In this document: piece by piece, positions 13,720 to 58,677 of the stretch
Layout: each line of letters starts with the position of its first letter
Position numbering within the stretch: position 1 is the first letter of the stretch
NCBI GenBank assembly: GCA_036170475.1
Contig: JAVHPE010000126.1
Coordinates: forward strand, 3,999 to 67,998
Reading direction: 5' to 3'
From: Bacteroidia bacterium
GTDB taxonomy: Bacteria; Bacteroidota; Bacteroidia; 2-12-FULL-35-15
DNA length: 64,000 nucleotides
Position numbers and translations under genes: made by a program
The notes under the pieces: generated by a model
Database searches by the model: none
What the model was told of the DNA's origin: nothing
The model's input: only the letters and a program-made list of their open reading frames with translations

Positions 13720-14209
13720 TTTCCCGCAGATTTCGCAAATTTTCGCAGATTTTTTTCTTGGTTAACCCGTTCTATCTATTTGAGATATTTGTAAATTATT
13801 TACTTTCCTATAAATTGAATTTGAAATATTATCGGTATTGAAATTTACTAGTATTCCTAGCTTTTTACCAGACAATTTCAAGTAAGTTAATACTTGTTTG
13901 TGATGTACATCTGCAATTTGTTCTACAGATTTTATTTCAATAATAACTAAATCATTTACTATAATATCTATTCTAAAACCAATATCTAATTTTTCACTTT
14001 CATAAATTACAGGTAAGGCAACTTGTGATCTGACCTCCAGTCCTTTCTTTTTCAATTCGAACATTAAGACCGCTTCATAAACTGATTCCAACAGGCCTGG
14101 CCCAAGTGAATTGTAAACTTTAAAAATAGCACCTCTTATAATGTAAGAAATTTCATTTTCTATCATTTTCTTAATTTTTTCCGCGTAAATCCGTGAAATC
14201 TGCGGGAAA
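13720..14209. mobile_element. inverted-repeat-bounded GxxExxY gene cassette
   Basis: TTTCCCGCAGATTTC at 13720-13734 and its exact reverse complement at 14195-14209 flank the GxxExxY ORF. Confidence 0.5.
13762..14166 (-). CDS. GxxExxY protein (PD-(D/E)XK nuclease-like)
   Basis: 134 aa. GPGLLESVYEAVLMFELKKKGLEV...IDIIVNDLVIIEIKSVE is the canonical GxxExxY family signature. Confidence 0.85.
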   Translation of the reverse strand: MIENEISYIIRGAIFKVYNSLGPGLLESVYEAVLMFELKKKGLEVRSQVALPVIYESEKLDIGFRIDIIVNDLVIIEIKSVEQIADVHHKQVLTYLKLSGKKLGILVNFNTDNISNSIYRKVNNLQISQIDRTG

Positions 14210-15541: not shown

Positions 15542-15617
15542 ATTTGAAATTGTATTATTATGAAATTTTTTAATGAATTAAGACAATGCCGTTAAGTTAT
15601 TGAACAATATTTACCCA

Positions 15618-15692
15618 ACGCACAGTCTTCGACAAGTTCTGACTGATCATTGTGCGATGTCACACTGAGCTTGTCGAAGTGTGCGAAGGCAT
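15618..15692. repeat. REP-like palindromic intergenic repeat, family 1, copy 1
   Basis: CACAGTCTTCGACAAGTTCTGACTGA...TCACACTGAGCTTGTCGAAGTGTGCG, an imperfect palindrome with about 26-nt arms. Related copies at 21166-21242 and 58188-58232. Confidence 0.7.
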
Positions 15693-16188: not shown

Positions 16189-16346
16189 TGTACGTTATTT
16201 TAATTTTCCATTGCGTATTGTTACTGGATTTGCGTAAATATTGGTCATTCGTTTAATCCCCCTAACCCCTCCTTCGGCAAGCTCAGGACAGGCTTTTTCA
16301 AGGGGGAATTGTTCCGTATCCTTAGGGTAGTAGGATGGACATATTA

Positions 16347-17213: not shown

Positions 17214-17361
17214 GTGGTTTAGTTTAGAGTTAAAAGTTTAGAGTTAAGAGTTTTTGTTTTGTGTTAAAAAAGTTTTGAGCTATATAGTTTTGAGTTAAAA
17301 GTGTAAATAGTTTTGAGTTAAAAGTTTAGAGTTATGAGTTTTTGTAGTGTGTTAAAAAAGT
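17214..17361. repeat. tandem duplication (about 45-bp units) at the left end of the four-helix-bundle cassette
   Basis: AGTTTAGAGTTAAGAGTTTTTGTTTTGTGTTAAAAAAGTTTTGAGC, then AGTTTAGAGTTATGAGTTTTTGTAGTGTGTTAAAAAAGTTTAGAGTT, with extra GAGTTAAAAGT units. Confidence 0.6.
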
Positions 17362-17752
17362 TTAGAGTTGTTTTGTTAAATATTTTTCTTTTGTTGTAAG
17401 TATAATACTGCTCAGAATTTTCATAAGTTCATTGCAATTATTTATTAAATTAATGTATTCTTCTTTATCTATGAAACCACTATCCGAAAGTAAATTAAGC
17501 CAATATGCCGTTTCTCTTGCTTCTTTTAATGAGATACTCATTTTGTGAATAAAATCTCTTTTTGATTCCCCTGCTAAAGCTTCGTTAATATTGGCTCCTA
17601 TGGAAGTGCCAGAACGTAAAACTTGTTTTGATAAAATAAATTCTCTCTTTTCAGACGATAAATTTTTGTAAAGTTTAATTATTAATAACGCAAAAGCATA
17701 AGATTTCCTTCCAACAATACTATCATTCTGTTTTAATAAACTCATAACTCTA
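17327..17752. mobile_element. inverted-repeat-bounded four-helix-bundle gene cassette
   Basis: TAGAGTTATGAGTTT at 17327-17341 and its exact reverse complement AAACTCATAACTCTA at 17738-17752. The ORF start codon lies inside the right arm. Confidence 0.5.
17362..17745 (-). CDS. four-helix-bundle protein (TIGR02436 / 23S rRNA intervening-sequence protein family)
   Basis: 127 aa. LSKQVLRSGTSIGANINEALAGESKRDFIHKMSISLKEARETAYWL is the family signature. Confidence 0.8.
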   Translation of the reverse strand: MSLLKQNDSIVGRKSYAFALLIIKLYKNLSSEKREFILSKQVLRSGTSIGANINEALAGESKRDFIHKMSISLKEARETAYWLNLLSDSGFIDKEEYINLINNCNELMKILSSIILTTKEKYLTKQL

Positions 17753-17763
17753 CTCTCTTAATT

Positions 17764-19143
17764 TTAAACTAAAGTAAATTTATTTCTTCTGATAAATTTA
17801 CCATATCCTTTTTCGACAAGTAATTTATTATCATCCACAGCTACATTACCTCTCAGGATTATTGTTTTGCATTTACCTGTTAATTGCCATCCTTCATAAC
17901 CGGAATAATCACAATTCATATGATGAGTTTTTGCAGAAATGGTATGCTTTTCATTCGGATCTAAAATTACTATATCAGCATCAGAACCTACAGCAATAGT
18001 ACCTTTCTGAGGATACATTCCAAATATTTTGGCTGCATTTGTGGAACTTACCTCAACAAATTTGTTCAGACTGATTTTATTTTTAATTACTCCTTCGGAG
18101 AATAATAATTCCATCCTGTTTTCAATTCCCGGAGCCCCATTCGGGATTTTTGTGAAATCGGTTGAACCCGCTTTCTTTTGTTCCCATGTGAATGGGCAAT
18201 GATCTGTCGCAACCACTTGCACAGTTCCCTGATTGATTCCTGCCCATAGACTTGTCTGATCTTTTTTCTCCCGTATCGGTGGACTCATCACCCATTTTGC
18301 AGATTCAAACCCTTTGTCATAAACAGAAGCATCGAGGACCAAATATTGAATACAGGTTTCAACAAAAATTTTCTGATTTCTTTTAGCAGCATCTCGGATG
18401 TGATTAAGCGCATCCTCGCTGGTCAGGTGTACAACATAAGATGGGACTCCTGTATGATACGCCATATCAGAAAAACGGCTTGTGGCTTCGCTTTCAGTAA
18501 TTTCGGGCTGAGATAAATAATGAAACAGAGGAGAAAGTTTCCCTTCCGATTTATGCTTCGCTACTAAGTAATCAATCATATCGCCATTGGTAGCATGAGT
18601 AGTTAATAATCCACCCTGTTTTTTTACTTCATGCATCAAGCCAATCATTTGCTTATCGTCAATCATTAAAGCACCTTTATAAGCCATGAATGTTTTGAAA
18701 GAAGTAATACCCTCTTTTTCAATCATGTCTTTTATTTCAGATCTGATTTCTTCATTAAAATCTGTTACGGACATGTGAAAAGAATAATCTCCAACAGCAT
18801 TTCCATCAGCACGACCCTTCCATTCATTTAATGCTGCGTATAAGGATTTCCCTTGTTTTTGGATCACAAAATCTATTACCATGGTAGTTCCTCCAAAAAG
18901 GGCTGCACGTGTTCCCGTTTCGTAATTATCACTGGAATAAGTCCCCATGAAGGGCATATCCAGATGAACATGAGGATCGATACCACCGGGTATTACCAAT
19001 TTGTTTTTTGCATCTATAACTATGTCCGCATTAACTGAAAGGTTGAGACCGATAAGTTTTACTTTTTCCTTTTCAATATAAATATCTGCAACATAATCAT
19101 CAGCAGCAGTTATAACTCTCCCATTTTTTATTAGAATTGACAT
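17764..19143 (-). CDS. dihydropyrimidinase / D-hydantoinase (cyclic amidohydrolase)
   Basis: ILIKNGRVITA...VIPGGIDPHVHLDMPFMGT...FKTFMAYKGALM, with metal-binding H-x-H, a carbamylated-Lys region and VVATDHCPF. Start set at MSILIKNG. Confidence 0.85.
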   Translation of the reverse strand: MSILIKNGRVITAADDYVADIYIEKEKVKLIGLNLSVNADIVIDAKNKLVIPGGIDPHVHLDMPFMGTYSSDNYETGTRAALFGGTTMVIDFVIQKQGKSLYAALNEWKGRADGNAVGDYSFHMSVTDFNEEIRSEIKDMIEKEGITSFKTFMAYKGALMIDDKQMIGLMHEVKKQGGLLTTHATNGDMIDYLVAKHKSEGKLSPLFHYLSQPEITESEATSRFSDMAYHTGVPSYVVHLTSEDALNHIRDAAKRNQKIFVETCIQYLVLDASVYDKGFESAKWVMSPPIREKKDQTSLWAGINQGTVQVVATDHCPFTWEQKKAGSTDFTKIPNGAPGIENRMELLFSEGVIKNKISLNKFVEVSSTNAAKIFGMYPQKGTIAVGSDADIVILDPNEKHTISAKTHHMNCDYSGYEGWQLTGKCKTIILRGNVAVDDNKLLVEKGYGKFIRRNKFTLV

Positions 19144-21042: not shown

Positions 21043-21130
21043 CTGACAGGGTTTCAAACCCTGTTAGAGGTATTTAACGAGTTACGAAATCCGAACAAAA
21101 CCCCTAACAGGGTTTGGAACCCTGTCAGGG
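21043..21130. repeat. REP-like palindromic repeat, family 2, copy 1
   Basis: CTGACAGGGTTTCAAACCCTGTTAG ... CTAACAGGGTTTGGAACCCTGTCAG: two inverted hairpins (CAGGG-tttcaaa-CCCTG) separated by about 45 nt. Second copy at 56003-56090. Confidence 0.7.
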
Positions 21131-21165
21131 AGCGCACAATGTCGTTTAGTTAAGGAAAAACATCA

Positions 21166-21242
21166 GCCCACAGTCTTCGACAAGCTCTGACTGACCGCGC
21201 GCTGGTCATATTGAGCCTGTCGAAATATGTGCGATAGCATCT
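21166..21242. repeat. REP-like palindromic repeat, family 1, copy 2
   Basis: CACAGTCTTCGACAAGCTCTGACTGA...TGAGCCTGTCGAAATATGTGCGATAGCATC. Confidence 0.7.
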
Positions 21243-21269
21243 TAACTAAACAGCATTGAGGGAGCGCAA

Positions 21270-45487: not shown

Positions 45488-45639
45488 TTTGATAAGTTTT
45501 TATATTAAAGATAAAACAAATACACATTACATTTACGCATAATCATAAACCATTCCAATTTTTATTTATAAATTTACGAGCACCCAAAAATACAAAATAC
45601 CAGCCAATATGATATACTAAAAAATATCGTAGCACTTAA

Positions 45640-46119
45640 GTCCCCCTTGTGAGTTGGACTGTGGGATTGCGAAGGGGGCAGGGGGATGAAAATCTGTTAT
45701 TCATGAACAACCATTACAATAAAAAGTTAAAATCCTTCGCTCAAAGCAATAGAAATTTTTCAACTAAAGCGGAAATAAGAATTTGGTGTGAATTATTGAG
45801 AAATAAAAAAATGTTAGGGTTCCCGTTTTTACGTCAACGACCAATTGAGAATTATATAGCTGATTTTATGTGTAAAGAACTAAATTTGATAATTGAAATT
45901 GATGGCTATTCTCATCAATTCAAATATGAGGAAGATATTGAAAGAGATGACAGACTAAAACAATTGGGATTTCATGTTCTGCGTTTTACAGATGACGAAA
46001 TAACAAAACATATTACAAATGTTGAACGTGCTATTATTCAATGGATAGATAATAAAGAAAAACAATTTCATCCCCCTGCCCCCTTCACTGACGCACATTC
46101 AATCACACAAGGGGGACAA
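45640..46119. mobile_element. DUF559 endonuclease gene bounded by about 49-bp imperfect terminal inverted repeats
   Basis: Left GTCCCCCTTGTGAG-n17-GAAGGGGGCAGGGGGATG at 45640-45688. Right (reverse complement) GTCCCCCTTGTGTG-n17-GAAGGGGGCAGGGGGATG at 46069-46119. Confidence 0.55.
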
Positions 46120-46131
46120 AAAAACAGATAA
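45703..46131 (+). CDS. DUF559 (Vsr-like) endonuclease domain protein
   Basis: NRNFSTKAEIRIWCELLRNKKMLGFPFLRQRPIENYIADFMCKELNLIIEIDGYSH...RDDRLKQLGFHVLRF is the DUF559 signature. Start set at MNNHY. Confidence 0.8.
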   Translation: MNNHYNKKLKSFAQSNRNFSTKAEIRIWCELLRNKKMLGFPFLRQRPIENYIADFMCKELNLIIEIDGYSHQFKYEEDIERDDRLKQLGFHVLRFTDDEITKHITNVERAIIQWIDNKEKQFHPPAPFTDAHSITQGGQKNR

Positions 46132-46377
46132 ATGCTAACCAATAACGATATACTAAAAAAAATACGTGTAGCTCTTGAGCTCAAAGATGAAGATGTGGTA
46201 AAAATCCTTAAGCTGGCTGACTTTGAAATTTCAAAAAGTGAATTAAATGCCCTCTACCGCAAGCCCGATCATGCCAACTATAAAGAGTGTGGAGATCAGT
46301 TATTACGTAATTTCCTGAATGGATTAATTATTTTTAAACGAGGTCCAATGCCGCCAAAAAAGCAAGAAGCAATTTGA
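46132..46377 (+). CDS. DUF1456 (YehS-like) domain protein, single-repeat form
   Basis: MLTNNDILKKIRVALELKDEDVVKILKLADFEISKSELNALYRK. Confidence 0.6.
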   Translation: MLTNNDILKKIRVALELKDEDVVKILKLADFEISKSELNALYRKPDHANYKECGDQLLRNFLNGLIIFKRGPMPPKKQEAI

Positions 46378-46407
46378 CAATTCGGCAGTAGGAAATTATT
46401 AAGCAAT

Positions 46408-49105: not shown

Positions 49106-49381
49106 TTATTTTTTCTTTTTACCACCTTTTTTTGCGGCAGCTTCAGCTTCAGCAGCTTTTGCAGCTTCTTCAGCAGCGGTAGCATCAGCAGCAGCTTTAG
49201 CAGCAGCTTCAGCAGCGGCAGCCTCTTCAGCAGCTTTAGCGGCGGCAGCAGCAGCGGCTTCTACTTGTGCTATTGAATCTTTTGTAGCTTTTTCTTTAGC
49301 AGCTTTTTCTTCAGCGCTTGGTCCACAAGCAGCGAATGTAAACACACCTGCTAGGGCAACTAATGTAAATACTTTTTTCAT
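49106..49381 (-). CDS. Ala/Lys/Glu-rich small lipoprotein (paralog 1)
   Basis: MKKVFTLVALAGVFTFAACG lipobox, then an AEEKAAKEKA...AAAKAAEEAAAAEAAAKAA helical low-complexity stretch and a KKGGKKKK tail. Confidence 0.65.
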   Translation of the reverse strand: MKKVFTLVALAGVFTFAACGPSAEEKAAKEKATKDSIAQVEAAAAAAAKAAEEAAAAEAAAKAAADATAAEEAAKAAEAEAAAKKGGKKKK

Positions 49382-49473
49382 TTTGTTTTGTTTGTGATTT
49401 TAATTAAAATTTGCACAAAGCTACATTTATTTTTTTATTTCAAACAACTATTTTAAAAAAAATTCTTCAAGAC

Positions 49474-49511
49474 ATAAAAAAAAGTCCCGCAAAATTGCAG
49501 GACTTTTTTTA
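49474..49511. terminator. bidirectional rho-independent terminator
   Basis: A8-AGTCCCGC-aaaatt-GCAGGACT-T7. Lies 3' of the minus-strand Ala-rich lipoprotein paralog 2. Confidence 0.65.
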
Positions 49512-49526
49512 ACTCAGAATAAGGTA

Positions 49527-49847
49527 TTAACCTCTTCCTTGACCAGGTTTAACCGGTGCTGGCTCAGCCTTTTTAACGGGCTTAGCTTTTCCACCTTTTT
49601 TTGCAGCTTTTGCAGCTTCTTCAGCAGCAGCAGCATCAGCAGCAGCTTTAGCAGCAGCTTCAGCAGCAGCAACTTCGGCAGCTTTTGCAGCTTCAGCAGC
49701 AGCAGCAGCTTGAGCAGCAGCAGCTTCTACAACAGCAATTGAATCTTGTTTTGCTTTTTCTTTAGCGGCTATTTCTTCAGCGCTTGGTCCGCATGCATAG
49801 AATGAAAACATTCCTGCTACGGCAACTAATGTAAGTACTTTTTTCAT
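49527..49847 (-). CDS. Ala/Lys/Glu-rich small lipoprotein (paralog 2)
   Basis: MKKVLTLVAVAGMFSFYACGPSAEEIAAKEKAKQDSIAVVEAAAAQAAAAAEAAKAAE... About 70% identical to paralog 1 over the N-terminal 40 aa. Confidence 0.65.
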   Translation of the reverse strand: MKKVLTLVAVAGMFSFYACGPSAEEIAAKEKAKQDSIAVVEAAAAQAAAAAEAAKAAEVAAAEAAAKAAADAAAAEEAAKAAKKGGKAKPVKKAEPAPVKPGQGRG

Positions 49848-49991
49848 ATTGTTTTAATTGTTTATTTGGTTAACCGGAGACAAAAGTAATATTTTTATTT
49901 AACAAAAAACAAATTTATTTTGATAAAAAAAAACAGTACATTTGTATCCGAAAAAATTAATCATTCCAACTAACAAATAAAAATTAAACAA

Positions 49992-54854: not shown

Positions 54855-54900
54855 GTCCCCCTTGTGAGAAAGCAAGTGTGGAGGAGAAGGGGGGTGCGAA
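54855..54900. repeat. solo copy of the DUF559-cassette terminal repeat
   Basis: GTCCCCCTTGTGAG-n18-GAAGGGGGGTGCGAAG has the same architecture as the 45640-45688 repeat, with no endonuclease ORF nearby. Confidence 0.5.
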
Positions 54901-54972
54901 GATTTTGTGTGTTGTTGGGGGATGTTTTTTTTGATTCGTAAATTCGTTATAATACCATTTATTAATATATAT

Positions 54973-55066
54973 TAGTCCAATCTAAAAAAACAACCCGCTT
55001 TCTCGACTTCGCTCGAAATGGCCCGTGCGAAGTCGAGAAAGCGGGTGGCATAACTGAATTGGACTA
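54973..55066. repeat. large nested palindrome
   Basis: Outer arms TAGTCCAAT / ATTGGACTA. Inner perfect 19-bp arms CCCGCTTTCTCGACTTCGC / GCGAAGTCGAGAAAGCGGG around a 14-nt loop. Confidence 0.7.
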
Positions 55067-55114
55067 TTTTATAAGTATAATTGGTATAATTCATTATCCA
55101 AAACCAAAAATATT

Positions 55115-55987: not shown

Positions 55988-56002
55988 AAATTATTGACTT
56001 AC

Positions 56003-56090
56003 CCTGCCAGGGTTTCAAACCCTGTTAGGGTTAGAGTTAGGGTTAGGGTTTAAAAGTTCTGTTTCAATCTGACAGGGTGTTTGAAAGTTT
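56003..56090. repeat. REP-like palindromic repeat, family 2, copy 2, with embedded TTAGGG-like triplet
   Basis: CCAGGGTTTCAAACCCTGTTAGGGTTAGAGTTAGGGTTAGGGTTT...CTGACAGGGTGTTTGAAAG. The second hairpin is degenerate. Confidence 0.65.
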
Positions 56091-57610: not shown

Positions 57611-57885
57611 ATATTTCTTTATTTGAAACAAATGTATGATTTTTTTATTTTACCATGCAGGTAACAAGCCTTGGGTGTACGACAAATATCCCTAACTATT
57701 TTTATTCCAAACCATACGGCAATGTCATTGAGTTATGGAACTTTCAAACATAAATGTCTCCCCAAGGTCTTCTACAGGCTTTGACTGAGTGCGCTAGGTC
57801 AGTCTGATTAAACAATTAAAAAAATTTAAAGCTCTTTGAAAATGACACAAAAAATTTTAAAATTACAGCAAACAAAAAGCATTTT

Positions 57886-58110
57886 TTCTTTTTGCTTGAT
57901 CAAAAAGAAACAAAAATTCAGTGGGGTGCGGCTGATGTCTCCCGCATAATGCGGGACGAACTGCAATTTTTTCAAGCCAAGTTTTGGCTGGTTTTGTGTG
58001 AAAGAAAAAATTGGTTTGGTTTTCGTGGTCTCTTTTTATTGCTGGCACACAATCTCGCTCATCCCGCCACAGGCGGGCTGCCGCTTTCTTTTGGAGAAGC
58101 AAAAGAAAGT
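57886..58110 (+). ncRNA. candidate structured non-coding element B (paralog of element A)
   Basis: 5' hairpin TTCTTTTTG-cttgat-CAAAAAGAA (57886-57910). Conserved blocks GGTGCGGCTGATGTC (57925), GGTTTGGTTTTCGTGGTCTC (58013), and 3' hairpin CTTTCTTTTG-gagaag-CAAAAGAAAG (58084-58109). Internal hairpins TCCCGCATAATGCGGGA and CCCGCCACAGGCGGG. Confidence 0.3.
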
Positions 58111-58187
58111 AAAATGTCCAATGAGTAAAAAAGTTATGTTTCATAAAAAAGTAATATTGTAAGTAATTGAAAAAAAATTAGCTACAT

Positions 58188-58232
58188 AGTGTGTCATTGG
58201 AAGCCTGTCGAAATATGTGCGATGGCTTCTTA
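58188..58232. repeat. REP-like repeat, family 1, half copy
   Basis: TCATTGGAAGCCTGTCGAAATATGTGCGATGGCTTCTTAA versus 21209-21247 TCATATTGAGCCTGTCGAAATATGTGCGATAGCATCTTAA. Confidence 0.6.
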
Positions 58233-58677
58233 AATTATGAGATTAGGGAAATTTGTCGTACACCCCAAGCCTTTGAACAGAAAATCTTAACGATAAGCCG
58301 GCATTTTAAAATAAAATTCATCTCAAATTTAATGAAACATTAAAACTTATTTTTCGTAGAATGTGTTCTAAAAAATTAACATCATTTAACAAAAAATGAT
58401 TGTATATGTTAAAATAAATGGTATATTGCGTAACGGTATTACATATTATCTTAAACAATCCCACAATAGTGGAGGATCAACTATAATATCCCATCAAAAT
58501 AAAAAAGTTTTTGCGAATTTTTTACTGATTAACAACAATAAGTGAGACAAAGAGATTGGAAATAATCTTTGATGATTGTCTATTATTCTTCTTTTTTAAT
58601 TTATTATTTTTTTACTAATCTGAATATAAACTGTGGGCTCATCTATAAAGCATACCGACTCTTAACTCAACCATATT

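Follow-up and report, generated by a model that had tools for sequence, protein, structure and literature searches.

The 64,000-nt stretch of DNA analysed here, referred to below as the window (contig JAVHPE010000126.1 of a Bacteroidia bacterium), is AT-rich, with 34.8% G+C, and carries a small gene for a DUF559 nuclease, with a structured repeat on either side in inverted orientation. Gene and repeats are best read, with moderate confidence, as a selfish, homing-like nuclease cassette of ~0.5 kb whose repeats are its cognate sites, in a relationship resembling that of REPIN-RAYT systems. The following features make up the cassette and its immediate surroundings (ORF, open reading frame).

45640-45698, plus strand: left arm, a long-form hairpin/mirror-repeat module (sequence reading, repeat finder, shuffles)
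45686-45706, plus strand: mini-ORF MKICYS*, six codons, starting at an ATG in the left arm, its stop overlapping the DUF559 start codon (ATGA)
45703-46131, plus strand: DUF559 nuclease gene, 142 amino acids (aa) (Pfam match, structure model, dN/dS)
46059-46117, minus strand: right arm, an inverted long-form module overlapping the 3' end of the ORF (sequence reading, repeat finder, shuffles)
46132-46377, plus strand: host gene DUF1456 (Pfam 1.1e-32)

The cassette and its nuclease

In the left arm, GTCCCCCTTGTGAG at 45640-45653 is followed, after a 17-nt spacer, by GAAGGGGGCAGGGGGATG at 45671-45688. Read in reverse complement, the right arm has GTCCCCCTTGTGTG at 46104-46117, again a 17-nt spacer, and GAAGGGGGCAGGGGGATG at 46069-46086. 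Divided into blocks, the left arm runs GT-CCCCCTT, a 23-nt loop, AAGGGGG, C, AGGGGG and ATGAAAATCTGTT. The repeat finder gives a pair of 59 nt with 80% complementarity (45640-45698 / 46059-46117), i.e. terminal inverted repeats (TIRs) in the formal sense. In dinucleotide shuffles, the 14-mer, observed three times, was expected 0.13 times, and the 18-mer, observed twice, 0.00 times. The imperfect inverted repeats that an earlier note had described around the gene are thus borne out by sequence reading, repeat finder and shuffles, and are longer than described there; the right arm ends at 46117, 2 nt short of the end coordinate given in that note (46119).

The gene begins with an ATG at 45703, 15 nt inside the left-arm boundary, and its codons 123-142 (HPPAPFTDAHSITQGGQKNR*) begin at 46069, the first base of the right-arm core, and are encoded by the right arm plus 14 nt; the earlier note had placed both the start and the last 20 codons correctly. 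Translational coupling between the mini-ORF and the DUF559 gene is possible from their overlap, a layout that is repeated in the related locus L001 and not in L003 (L numbers designate the loci used for comparison). The DUF559 stop codon abuts the start codon of DUF1456. A promoter-like TAnnTTT box of the Bacteroidota type, recognised by eye, lies upstream of the cassette, and the start of the host gene DUF1456 downstream. Neighbouring genes encode a domain-less protein of 398 aa, DUF1456 and a PIF1-like helicase; among the neighbours scanned, neither a cytosine methyltransferase nor a recombinase was found.

By sequence and by predicted structure, the protein is a Vsr-like PD-(D/E)XK nuclease of the DUF559, YcjD type. 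Pfam DUF559 (PF04480) was matched with 100.4 bits (cut-off 20.6; E 6.8e-29) over residues 26-132 of a 160-aa ORF, the only other Pfam match being a weak one to MTES_1575. The NCBIfam YcjD equivalog PRK09767 scored 55.5 bits, under its cut-off of 218, which makes the protein a relative of YcjD and not an equivalog. In the Pfam scan the Vsr family profile gave no match at E <= 0.01, which sets the protein apart from canonical Vsr systems. A profile of 22 homologues found PDB 3HRL, an endonuclease-like protein of N. gonorrhoeae (8.8e-24), and the catalytic domain of I-Bth0305I (3R3P; 1.3e-6). The AlphaFold2 model has a core with predicted local distance difference test (pLDDT) values of 74-93, falling below 50 in residues 128-142, and in Foldseek it was matched to 3HRL, I-Bth0305I and E. 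coli Vsr with template-modelling scores (TMt) of 0.90, 0.78 and 0.47, respectively. The columns D54, E65, D67, H71 and D78 are invariant in the 22 sequences. Ratios of nonsynonymous to synonymous substitution (dN/dS) of 0.08-0.18 among the window, L001, L123 and L003 indicate that the nuclease is under purifying selection. From dN/dS, the invariant D/E/H columns and the fold matches, the nuclease is judged to be functional. The codons encoded by the right arm (123-142) appear dispensable.

PADLOC gave no defence-system match for the DUF559 protein, and PHROGs gave only weak matches to families of unknown function. An exact-sequence look-up with the protein gave no match. Neither a Y1_Tnp match nor a transposase of any known class was found, the sole ORF of the unit being the 142-aa DUF559 nuclease. 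At the RNA level, neither the window nor any of 17 related loci reached the gathering score of an Rfam family, and searches by E-value gave no relevant match between 45400 and 46400 (E <= 10) or in four Pedobacter loci (E <= 1). The left arm had been considered as a possible Pedo-repair motif (RF01715), an identification that was abandoned when the Rfam searches gave matches at chance level only. A sub-threshold match to the Rfam DUF805 RNA motif at 46284-46398 (18.1 bits, gathering score 51.1, E 1.9), covering the 3' end of DUF1456 and the spacer preceding the helicase gene, is probably due to chance.

Gain, loss and exchange at the DUF1456 site

The close relatives of the gene all lie directly upstream of DUF1456 and in one orientation (window, L001, L002, L003, L123 and L290-L295). 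This adjacency is limited to the window lineage, and DUF1456 was rejected as a functional partner on that ground. In six further loci (L203-L208), DUF1456 is 92-95% identical and synteny is kept, and the nuclease gene and the left arm are missing; the order at these empty sites is a 399-aa gene on the other strand, a spacer, DUF1456 and the PIF1-like helicase gene. L203-L206 each still have a single degenerate right-arm module, seen in the spacers of L203, L205 and L206 as a long form oriented like the right arm and orthologous to it in position (tCATCCCaagCCCtCTTC...CCAAGGGGGAC), and L207 and L208 show no more than a doubtful trace of a module. Unlike the decayed module of the empty sites, the arms beside the gene retain perfect G/C runs.

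Between the window and L001, synonymous divergence (dS) is 1.23 for the helicase and 1.48 for DUF1456 but 0.15 for the DUF559 ORF, and sliding identity is 92-100% from ~45620 to ~46135, compared with 65-88% on either side, the edges of this high-identity block lying no more than ~12 nt from the arms. The low dS of the cassette between flanks of high dS indicates that the cassette is much younger than the surrounding chromosome and has recently been exchanged horizontally into the same site. The lineages that exchange it are no closer relatives of each other than of the empty-site lineages. A fixed insertion site, presence/absence polymorphism and an element younger than its flanks, the marks of a homing gene, are therefore all found here, and the cassette behaves selfishly, being gained, lost and, recently, exchanged horizontally without a change of site. 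The earlier note's suggestion of a selfish, endonuclease-carrying unit is strengthened by the empty-site relatives and by a cassette dS of 0.15 between flanks at 1.2-1.5.

Next to the arms there is no short target-site duplication of the kind considered in the earlier note; instead, ~60 nt of host sequence are repeated directly, in diverged form, on either side of the unit, here and at a few other loci.

45578-45639, plus strand: left member (T') of the direct-repeat pair, diverged from the host sequence that it duplicates, 3' of the right arm (DUF1456 5' end)
46118-46180, plus strand: right flanking direct repeat (T), a 14-nt spacer and the first DUF1456 codons

The local alignment of T' and T scores 27, where the null distribution has its 95th percentile at 12 and its maximum at 18. 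The T' arrangement is common to the window and L001, and identity between the two there is ~70%, like that of other non-coding flank, which indicates that T' predates the recent exchange and lies outside the exchanged block. Direct repeats of 35-65 nt flank about 7 of the 39 two-armed loci, with scores of 21-36 in the six clearest and 14.5-16.5 in others (null maximum 18). L003 and L209 were considered as a second filled/empty pair and set aside: their spacers are unrelated, and they show no duplication and give no boundary information. In L123, the arms are amplified in tandem (538-750 and 1290-1700), giving three left and four right arms, and stretches like the DUF1456 5' end, judged by eye, lie between the right-arm copies.

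The repeat module within and beyond the cassette

A metagenome scan by protein alignment alone returned more than 498 DUF559 relatives, of which the best 80 (47-83% identity) were examined. In about 50 of these 80, the 5' and 3' flanks of the gene share a local inverted repeat, almost always of the form (G)TCCCCCTT-TG-AAGGGGG-N1-3-AGGGGG-ATGA. Strictly defined modules, in which only the inner stem bases may vary, reach a density of 1.87/kb up to 200 nt from the gene, compared with 0.09/kb on the rest of the same contigs, an enrichment of ~20-fold, and the stem variant is equal on both sides in 28 of 29 two-armed loci. Moreover, ~40% of the 120 best homologues end in one of three kinds of C-terminal tail (HPPxPFKGG, IPLPPSKG, PLQRG/SPLPPF), which are one nucleotide motif, CATCCCCCTNCCCCCTTCAAGGGGG, read in its three frames. 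The syntenic orthologue L001 differs by a 1-nt indel and has the arm in a different frame, and in L290, a very close relative, and L123 a stop codon stands just before the arm. Use of the right arm in three frames across homologues shows that the arms are conserved as DNA, not as peptide.

The pairing extends to named genera. Pontibacter sp. SGAir0037 has a DUF559 gene with both arms, and Rufibacter roseolus has a complete gene-less doublet 40 nt downstream of its DUF559 gene. In L200 the arms are nested, a GC-type module lying outside a TC-type module on both sides, which would fit insertion of a cassette into a pre-existing doublet. The DUF559 relatives on viral contigs are all distant (<= 46% identity). 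As to genomic setting, conserved operons harbour an inserted DUF559 gene, co-oriented with the host genes, at L287 and L289: between moxR and a DUF58 gene in Rufibacter roseolus, and between PAPS-reductase-like and cysN-like genes in Pontibacter sp. SGAir0037.

In the module, a C-run is followed by a complementary G-run and this by another G-run in mirror arrangement, an order found in both arms and, in variant form, in the two gene-less copies of the window described below. The arms read CCCCCTT ... AAGGGGG-N-AGGGGGAT, i.e. they have the three blocks of the repeat known as BoxC, PIT (potential intrastrand triplex) or triplex motif (TM). Of 94 modules, 90 have complementary inner stem pairs, where shuffles gave a mean of 62 and a maximum of 70; the stem types are TT/AA (74), GC/GC (9) and TC/GA (7). 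The bases after the second G-run track the stem type in 84 of the 94 modules (GGGGGAT in 68, GGGGGTG in 9, GGGGGAG in 7), which identifies the third block as a mirror image of the second according to the purine-motif triplex rules (T*A:T, A*A:T, G*G:C). Relatives also carry a short form, GTCCCCCTTTGAAGGGGGTAGGGGGATGA, with a 2-nt centre and a second loop of 1-3 nt, which fits the TM loop rule. The four copies in the window, with first loops of 23-24 nt, fall outside the 1-6 nt that this rule allows; all are of the long form, with two tandem 12-mers, TGTGnGnnnGnn. The long form is also found at other loci of the clade, such as L001, the right arm of L003, L123 and L126.

The two window copies that have no gene (solo modules) are as follows.

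16250-16306, minus strand: second solo module, long form
54855-54925, plus strand: first solo module, long form, in the spacer between a sulfatase gene and a DAGK gene

The copy at 54855-54925 consists of GTCCCCCTTGTGAG, an 18-nt spacer, GAAGGGGGG, a 23-nt insertion and a second GGGGGATG at 54917-54925, and the one read from 16306 to 16250 of TTCCCCCTT, a 24-nt loop, AAGGAGGGG, TT, AGGGGG and ATTAAAC. A gene-less third copy had been reported in the earlier note; it is real at 54855-54893, runs on to the second GGGGGATG (54925), and is joined by the fourth copy at 16306-16250, which had been missed. The orthologous spot of the 54855 copy in L001 has a different, short module of related grammar. 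A palindrome with 67-nt arms (54949-55090; 76% complementary, 8 nt apart) lies directly beside the 54855 copy; it is absent in L001, whose orthologous spacer measures only 88 nt.

Beyond the window, a DNA-pattern scan with one genome per species covered at least 119 stretches, so its copy numbers per genome are lower bounds. Gene-less inverted doublets with interiors of 43-102 nt, together with solos, are found in Rufibacter, Pontibacter, Pedobacter and Bacteroidaceae genomes, and the doublets of Rufibacter form a clear family of ~150 bp resembling miniature inverted-repeat transposable elements (MITEs). The solos and doublets often occur several per genome, with flanks conserved beyond the scan pattern. 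The small family surmised in the earlier note is real as regards the solos and the MITE-like gene-less doublets in relatives, and is in fact a large one spanning several genera. Its terminal inverted repeats do bound the unit, but are not private to it: the arms are, on this sequence evidence, copies of an independent, widespread BoxC/PIT-like mirror-repeat hairpin and not private transposon ends. Several MAGs (metagenome-assembled genomes) have phylum-specific versions of the module inside longer conserved repeats, several per MAG and with no DUF559 gene in the 8-kb blocks, namely Dehalococcoidia (L005, L009, L015, L030, L033, L063) and a Deltaproteobacteria MAG (L018, L042, L087, L104, L109); examples are tctgggggtgtcccccagat...CCCCCTTCCTGGTCAGGAAGGGGGCAGGGGGATGgtcgaa and ttgggggccgcaggcc.ccaatcatatcaaCCCCCTTCCCTTTGGGAAGGGGGCAGGGGGATGggaaaaaac. 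Other gene families were considered as partners of the solo modules and rejected, the ORFs after the modules being spurious or ordinary host genes. Shine-Dalgarno mimicry by AAGGGGG / CCCCCTT and CpG deamination at the TTYGAA centre were likewise dropped, as consistent spacing or evidence was wanting.

In E. coli K-12, ycjD (DUF559; L296, NC_000913.3 1351195-1351770) ends in a degenerate C-G-G module, with the tail ...RRSPSP*, and a strict TM_ECO/BoxC copy, inverted relative to it, is found 165 nt downstream; the interval between the two contains a duplicate of part of the ycjD 3' end. BoxC was reportedly first described in a paper on envM (= fabI), the gene next to ycjD; from this adjacency, the founding BoxC copy is presumably the one beside ycjD. 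The BoxC and PIT repeats are said to go back to Bergler 1992 and to Hoyne and Maher 2000. BoxC has been re-described as PIT elements and as TM_ECO, with the consensus CCCTCNCCC-N3-6-GGGNGAGGG-N3-GGGNGAGGG, the TM motif being defined by stems of 6-15 nt and loops of 1-6 nt (Holder et al. 2015, PMC4666352). MG1655 has 23 TM_ECO copies, with inverted pairs at five sites, and the isolated TM_ECO strand forms a triplex in vitro (PMC4666352). TM_ECO loci show raised local variability and rearrangement between strains, and no transposase or integrase remnants or mobility genes were seen near them (Holder et al. 2015, PMC4666352). The TM_ECO pattern itself was matched at the E. coli locus only. A search for an empty ycjD site found no E. 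coli genome that joins the sapF and fabI flanks within ~650 nt, including the 38% of genomes that lack the full-length ycjD-BoxC block.

The window contains further repeats of other kinds. A GxxExxY/PDDEXK_3 gene (13762-14166, minus strand; Pfam 3.6e-41, TIGR04256) lies within a 30-nt inverted repeat with 83% complementarity (13720-14209; arms TTTCCCGCAGATTTCGCAAATTTTCGCAGA / ...TCTGCGGGAAA); its design is that of the DUF559 unit, and its repeat is different. A 34-nt inverted repeat (17308-17341 / 17738-17771) surrounds a gene of the 23S_rRNA_IVP four-helix-bundle family (17362-17745, minus strand; Pfam 4.5e-30, TIGR02436), with a 70-nt direct repeat at the same unit (17220-17289 / 17308-17377). 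At 57668-58270, a 28-nt inverted repeat with 89% complementarity surrounds ~550 nt with a 93-aa ORF that has no match in Pfam, NCBIfam or PHROGs, and pieces of this unit recur at 15616-15646, 21164-21245 and 58193, making up a further repeat family. Palindromes resembling repetitive extragenic palindromic (REP) sequences, CTGACAGGGTTTCAAACCCTGTTAG, are present in three copies (21043-21130, 56002-56044), two of which form an inverted doublet 22 nt apart. Finally, two adjacent ORFs at 49106-49873 consist mostly of 9-nt GCAGC-rich tandem repeats and would encode Ala/Lys-rich low-complexity proteins; they also form a mutual direct repeat of 247 nt with 77% identity.

A proposed homing-like cassette and its alternatives

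In the homing-like reading favoured here, the nuclease would recognise the structured repeat and nick or cut at or near the module, and repair of the break would copy the cassette from a template that bears it, with the repeats as portable arms of homology. The DUF559 gene would thereby home into sites that already carry the repeat, and the activity of the nuclease might also keep repeats intact and spread gene-less copies, as a RAYT does with REPINs. Action of the nuclease on the repeat, a cleavage point at or near the module and homology-directed copying rather than transposition are what we infer for such a cassette.

Each known system shares part of this design. With BoxC/PIT/TM_ECO, the window repeat shares the C-run, the complementary G-run and the mirroring second G-run, as well as the occurrence of intergenic solos and inverted pairs at loci that are unstable between strains. 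However, its blocks are of 7 nt (CCCCCTT / AAGGGGG / AGGGGGAT) and not of 9 nt (CCCTCNCCC / GGGNGAGGG / GGGNGAGGG), its first loop is of 23-24 nt and not of 1-6 nt, and it brackets a nuclease gene, whereas no associated gene has been published for BoxC/PIT/TM_ECO. REPIN-RAYT systems (Bertels and Rainey 2011, PMC3116915; PMC3337134; PMC5581495) are likewise based on short structured intergenic repeats with the inverted doublet as proposed mobile unit, on a nuclease gene flanked by inverted repeat copies, and on repeats that are intact beside the gene and decayed at empty sites; DUF559 is similarly single-copy in each stretch examined. They differ in their enzyme, an HUH Y1 (IS200/IS605-like) transposase where the window has a DUF559 Vsr-like PD-(D/E)XK protein, and in their repeat, since that of the window includes a third, mirror block and is without the 5' tetranucleotide GTAG. 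RAYTs are also mostly vertically inherited, while the DUF559 gene is gained, lost and exchanged horizontally.

The nuclease fold is shared with I-Bth0305I, a Vsr-like 'EDxHD' free-standing homing endonuclease (Taylor et al. 2011, PMC3239194), and the fixed site, the presence/absence among close relatives and an age younger than the flanks are shared with homing endonuclease genes in general. In contrast to these, the DUF559 gene does not reside in an intron, intein or phage, the protein lacks the large DNA-binding N-terminal region of I-Bth0305I, and the cassette is bounded by inverted structured repeats that are also present gene-less elsewhere. MITEs and TIR transposons have in common with the cassette its terminal inverted repeats, its short gene-less derivatives with the same ends and the multiple copies per genome in Rufibacter and Pontibacter, but the cassette has no transposase of known class and no short target-site duplication, and no full copy was seen at a second site. 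Lastly, 23S rRNA intervening-sequence (IVS) genes and GxxExxY/PDDEXK_3 genes, one of each being present in the window, also have an ORF of 120-140 aa that fills the interior of an inverted repeat; their arm sequences and proteins are different, and the DUF559 unit lies outside rRNA and bears no sign of RNA-level selection on arm pairing.

Several observations weigh against the homing-like reading. In the window lineage the cassette is found at one site only, and a full unit at a second site was not seen; the flanking direct repeat of ~60 nt is not explained by simple homing. The window arms, with their 23-nt first loops, fold weakly as lone single strands: with a tool that covers Watson-Crick and wobble pairs only, z is -0.01 for the left arm and -2.6 for the right, so that the right arm alone differs from shuffles. 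Most copies found by the DNA pattern do not adjoin the gene. Among the matches listed, a DUF559 ORF stands beside the motif in only 5 of 119 genome blocks, and module copies without DUF559 in the analysed stretch occur in MAGs of Chloroflexota, Deltaproteobacteria, Firmicutes and Spirochaetes. Twenty viral contigs carry solo modules, none with an adjacent DUF559 gene, and the distant DUF559 relatives borne by phages lack modules in all but 2 of 56 cases. In E. coli, copies matching a 66-nt BoxC query are present in 5426 of 5426 complete genomes, at a median of 19 places, and the ycjD-BoxC block is full-length in only 3377 of them, which indicates that the repeats persist without an intact gene. 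Cutting of the repeat by the nuclease is itself a proposal drawn from sequence and comparison.

The copies that stand without the gene, and their survival where it is not intact, would be explained if DUF559 were a bystander, i.e. an ordinary Vsr-type repair nuclease, around whose gene repeats accumulate that spread by other means (slippage, an unknown enzyme or non-B DNA recombination), with gain and loss of the gene as a by-product of repeat instability. Beyond the many copies far from DUF559, some of them in phyla and phages where the analysed stretch showed no DUF559, and the wider presence of BoxC than of ycjD, the rearrangement tied to TM_ECO loci (Holder et al. 2015, PMC4666352), the Vsr-like repair role of a Caulobacter DUF559 protein (PMC12907096) and the tandem amplification of the arms in L123, as expected for a slippage-prone repeat, are in keeping with this idea. 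However, accumulation around a bystander does not account for the 20-fold enrichment at the gene, the symmetric inverted placement and the identity of the stem variant on both sides in nearly all two-armed loci, or for arms that, in genomic surroundings unrelated to each other, lie directly against the start codon and extend across the stop codon. Nor does it predict that the block of low dS is bounded by the arms, or that the arm has decayed at empty sites and kept perfect G/C runs beside the gene, and the scanned neighbours include no cytosine methyltransferase. The bystander explanation is considered unlikely.

It is less probable still that the arms act at the RNA level, pairing in the transcript around the ORF as in 23S rRNA IVSs and serving RNase III excision, insulation or translation control. 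A 506-nt transcript does fold with the 5' arm on the 3' arm (-136.9 kcal/mol, z = -7), and the promoter-like box, the junction of the DUF559 stop and DUF1456 start and the orientation of DUF559 genes, which mostly agrees with that of their neighbours (40 of 53 upstream, 47 of 58 downstream), are in keeping with it; the window also has other small genes in inverted repeats of their own, including the 23S_rRNA_IVP-family gene. Yet the mismatches between arms in 50 elements show no sense-strand bias towards G:U (57 vs 54, p = 0.85), and solos, doublets and copies on either strand need no partner arm. Moreover, a simple stem leaves the covarying third G-run without a function, and RNA does not form purine-motif triplexes (Holder et al. 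2015, PMC4666352).

A programmed inversion, in which the inverted repeats would turn the nuclease gene relative to a host promoter, is highly improbable. Predicted inversion targets are enriched in 'DUF559 domain-containing protein' (odds ratio 14.3) and in 'endonuclease domain-containing protein' (odds ratio 9.6) (Milman et al. 2023, PMC9881135), and the arms are indeed 59-nt inverted repeats, one of them inside coding sequence. Enrichment of DUF559 among such targets is nevertheless expected, because its inverted repeats have one arm within the coding sequence, and the gene has one orientation relative to DUF1456 in all contigs of the lineage and no recombinase among its scanned neighbours. 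Chance complementarity or conserved DUF559 coding ends, the contrary case named in the earlier note, can be dismissed, since nothing beyond the overlap of the right arm with the 3' end of the ORF speaks for it, shuffles predict 0.13 and 0.00 copies, and the motif occurs in all three reading frames and, at the left arm, in solos and in doublets, outside coding sequence.

Searches of the full text of open-access PubMed Central papers and bioRxiv preprints brought up no publication that connects DUF559 with these repeats. For BoxC/PIT/TM repeats, known since 1992, no function, origin or mobilising activity has been found so far, and DUF559 is a large family with almost no assigned biology; the link between the two, which is physical and systematic and is accompanied by covariation, by gain and loss and by a signature of horizontal transfer, gives both a testable role. 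A broader proposal, which we put forward only tentatively and regard as somewhat doubtful, is that DUF559/YcjD-type nucleases are dedicated partners of BoxC/PIT/triplex-motif repeats across phyla, as a second REPIN-RAYT-like system, based on a Vsr-like PD-(D/E)XK nuclease and on a DNA structure of the hairpin or triplex kind, in which a nuclease-only cassette, the gene between two repeats, homes into repeat-bearing sites. Since the ycjD-BoxC pairing is present in E. coli K-12, the hypothesis is directly testable in a model organism. If true, a nuclease-only, structure-bounded cassette would be added to the known kinds of bacterial selfish DNA.

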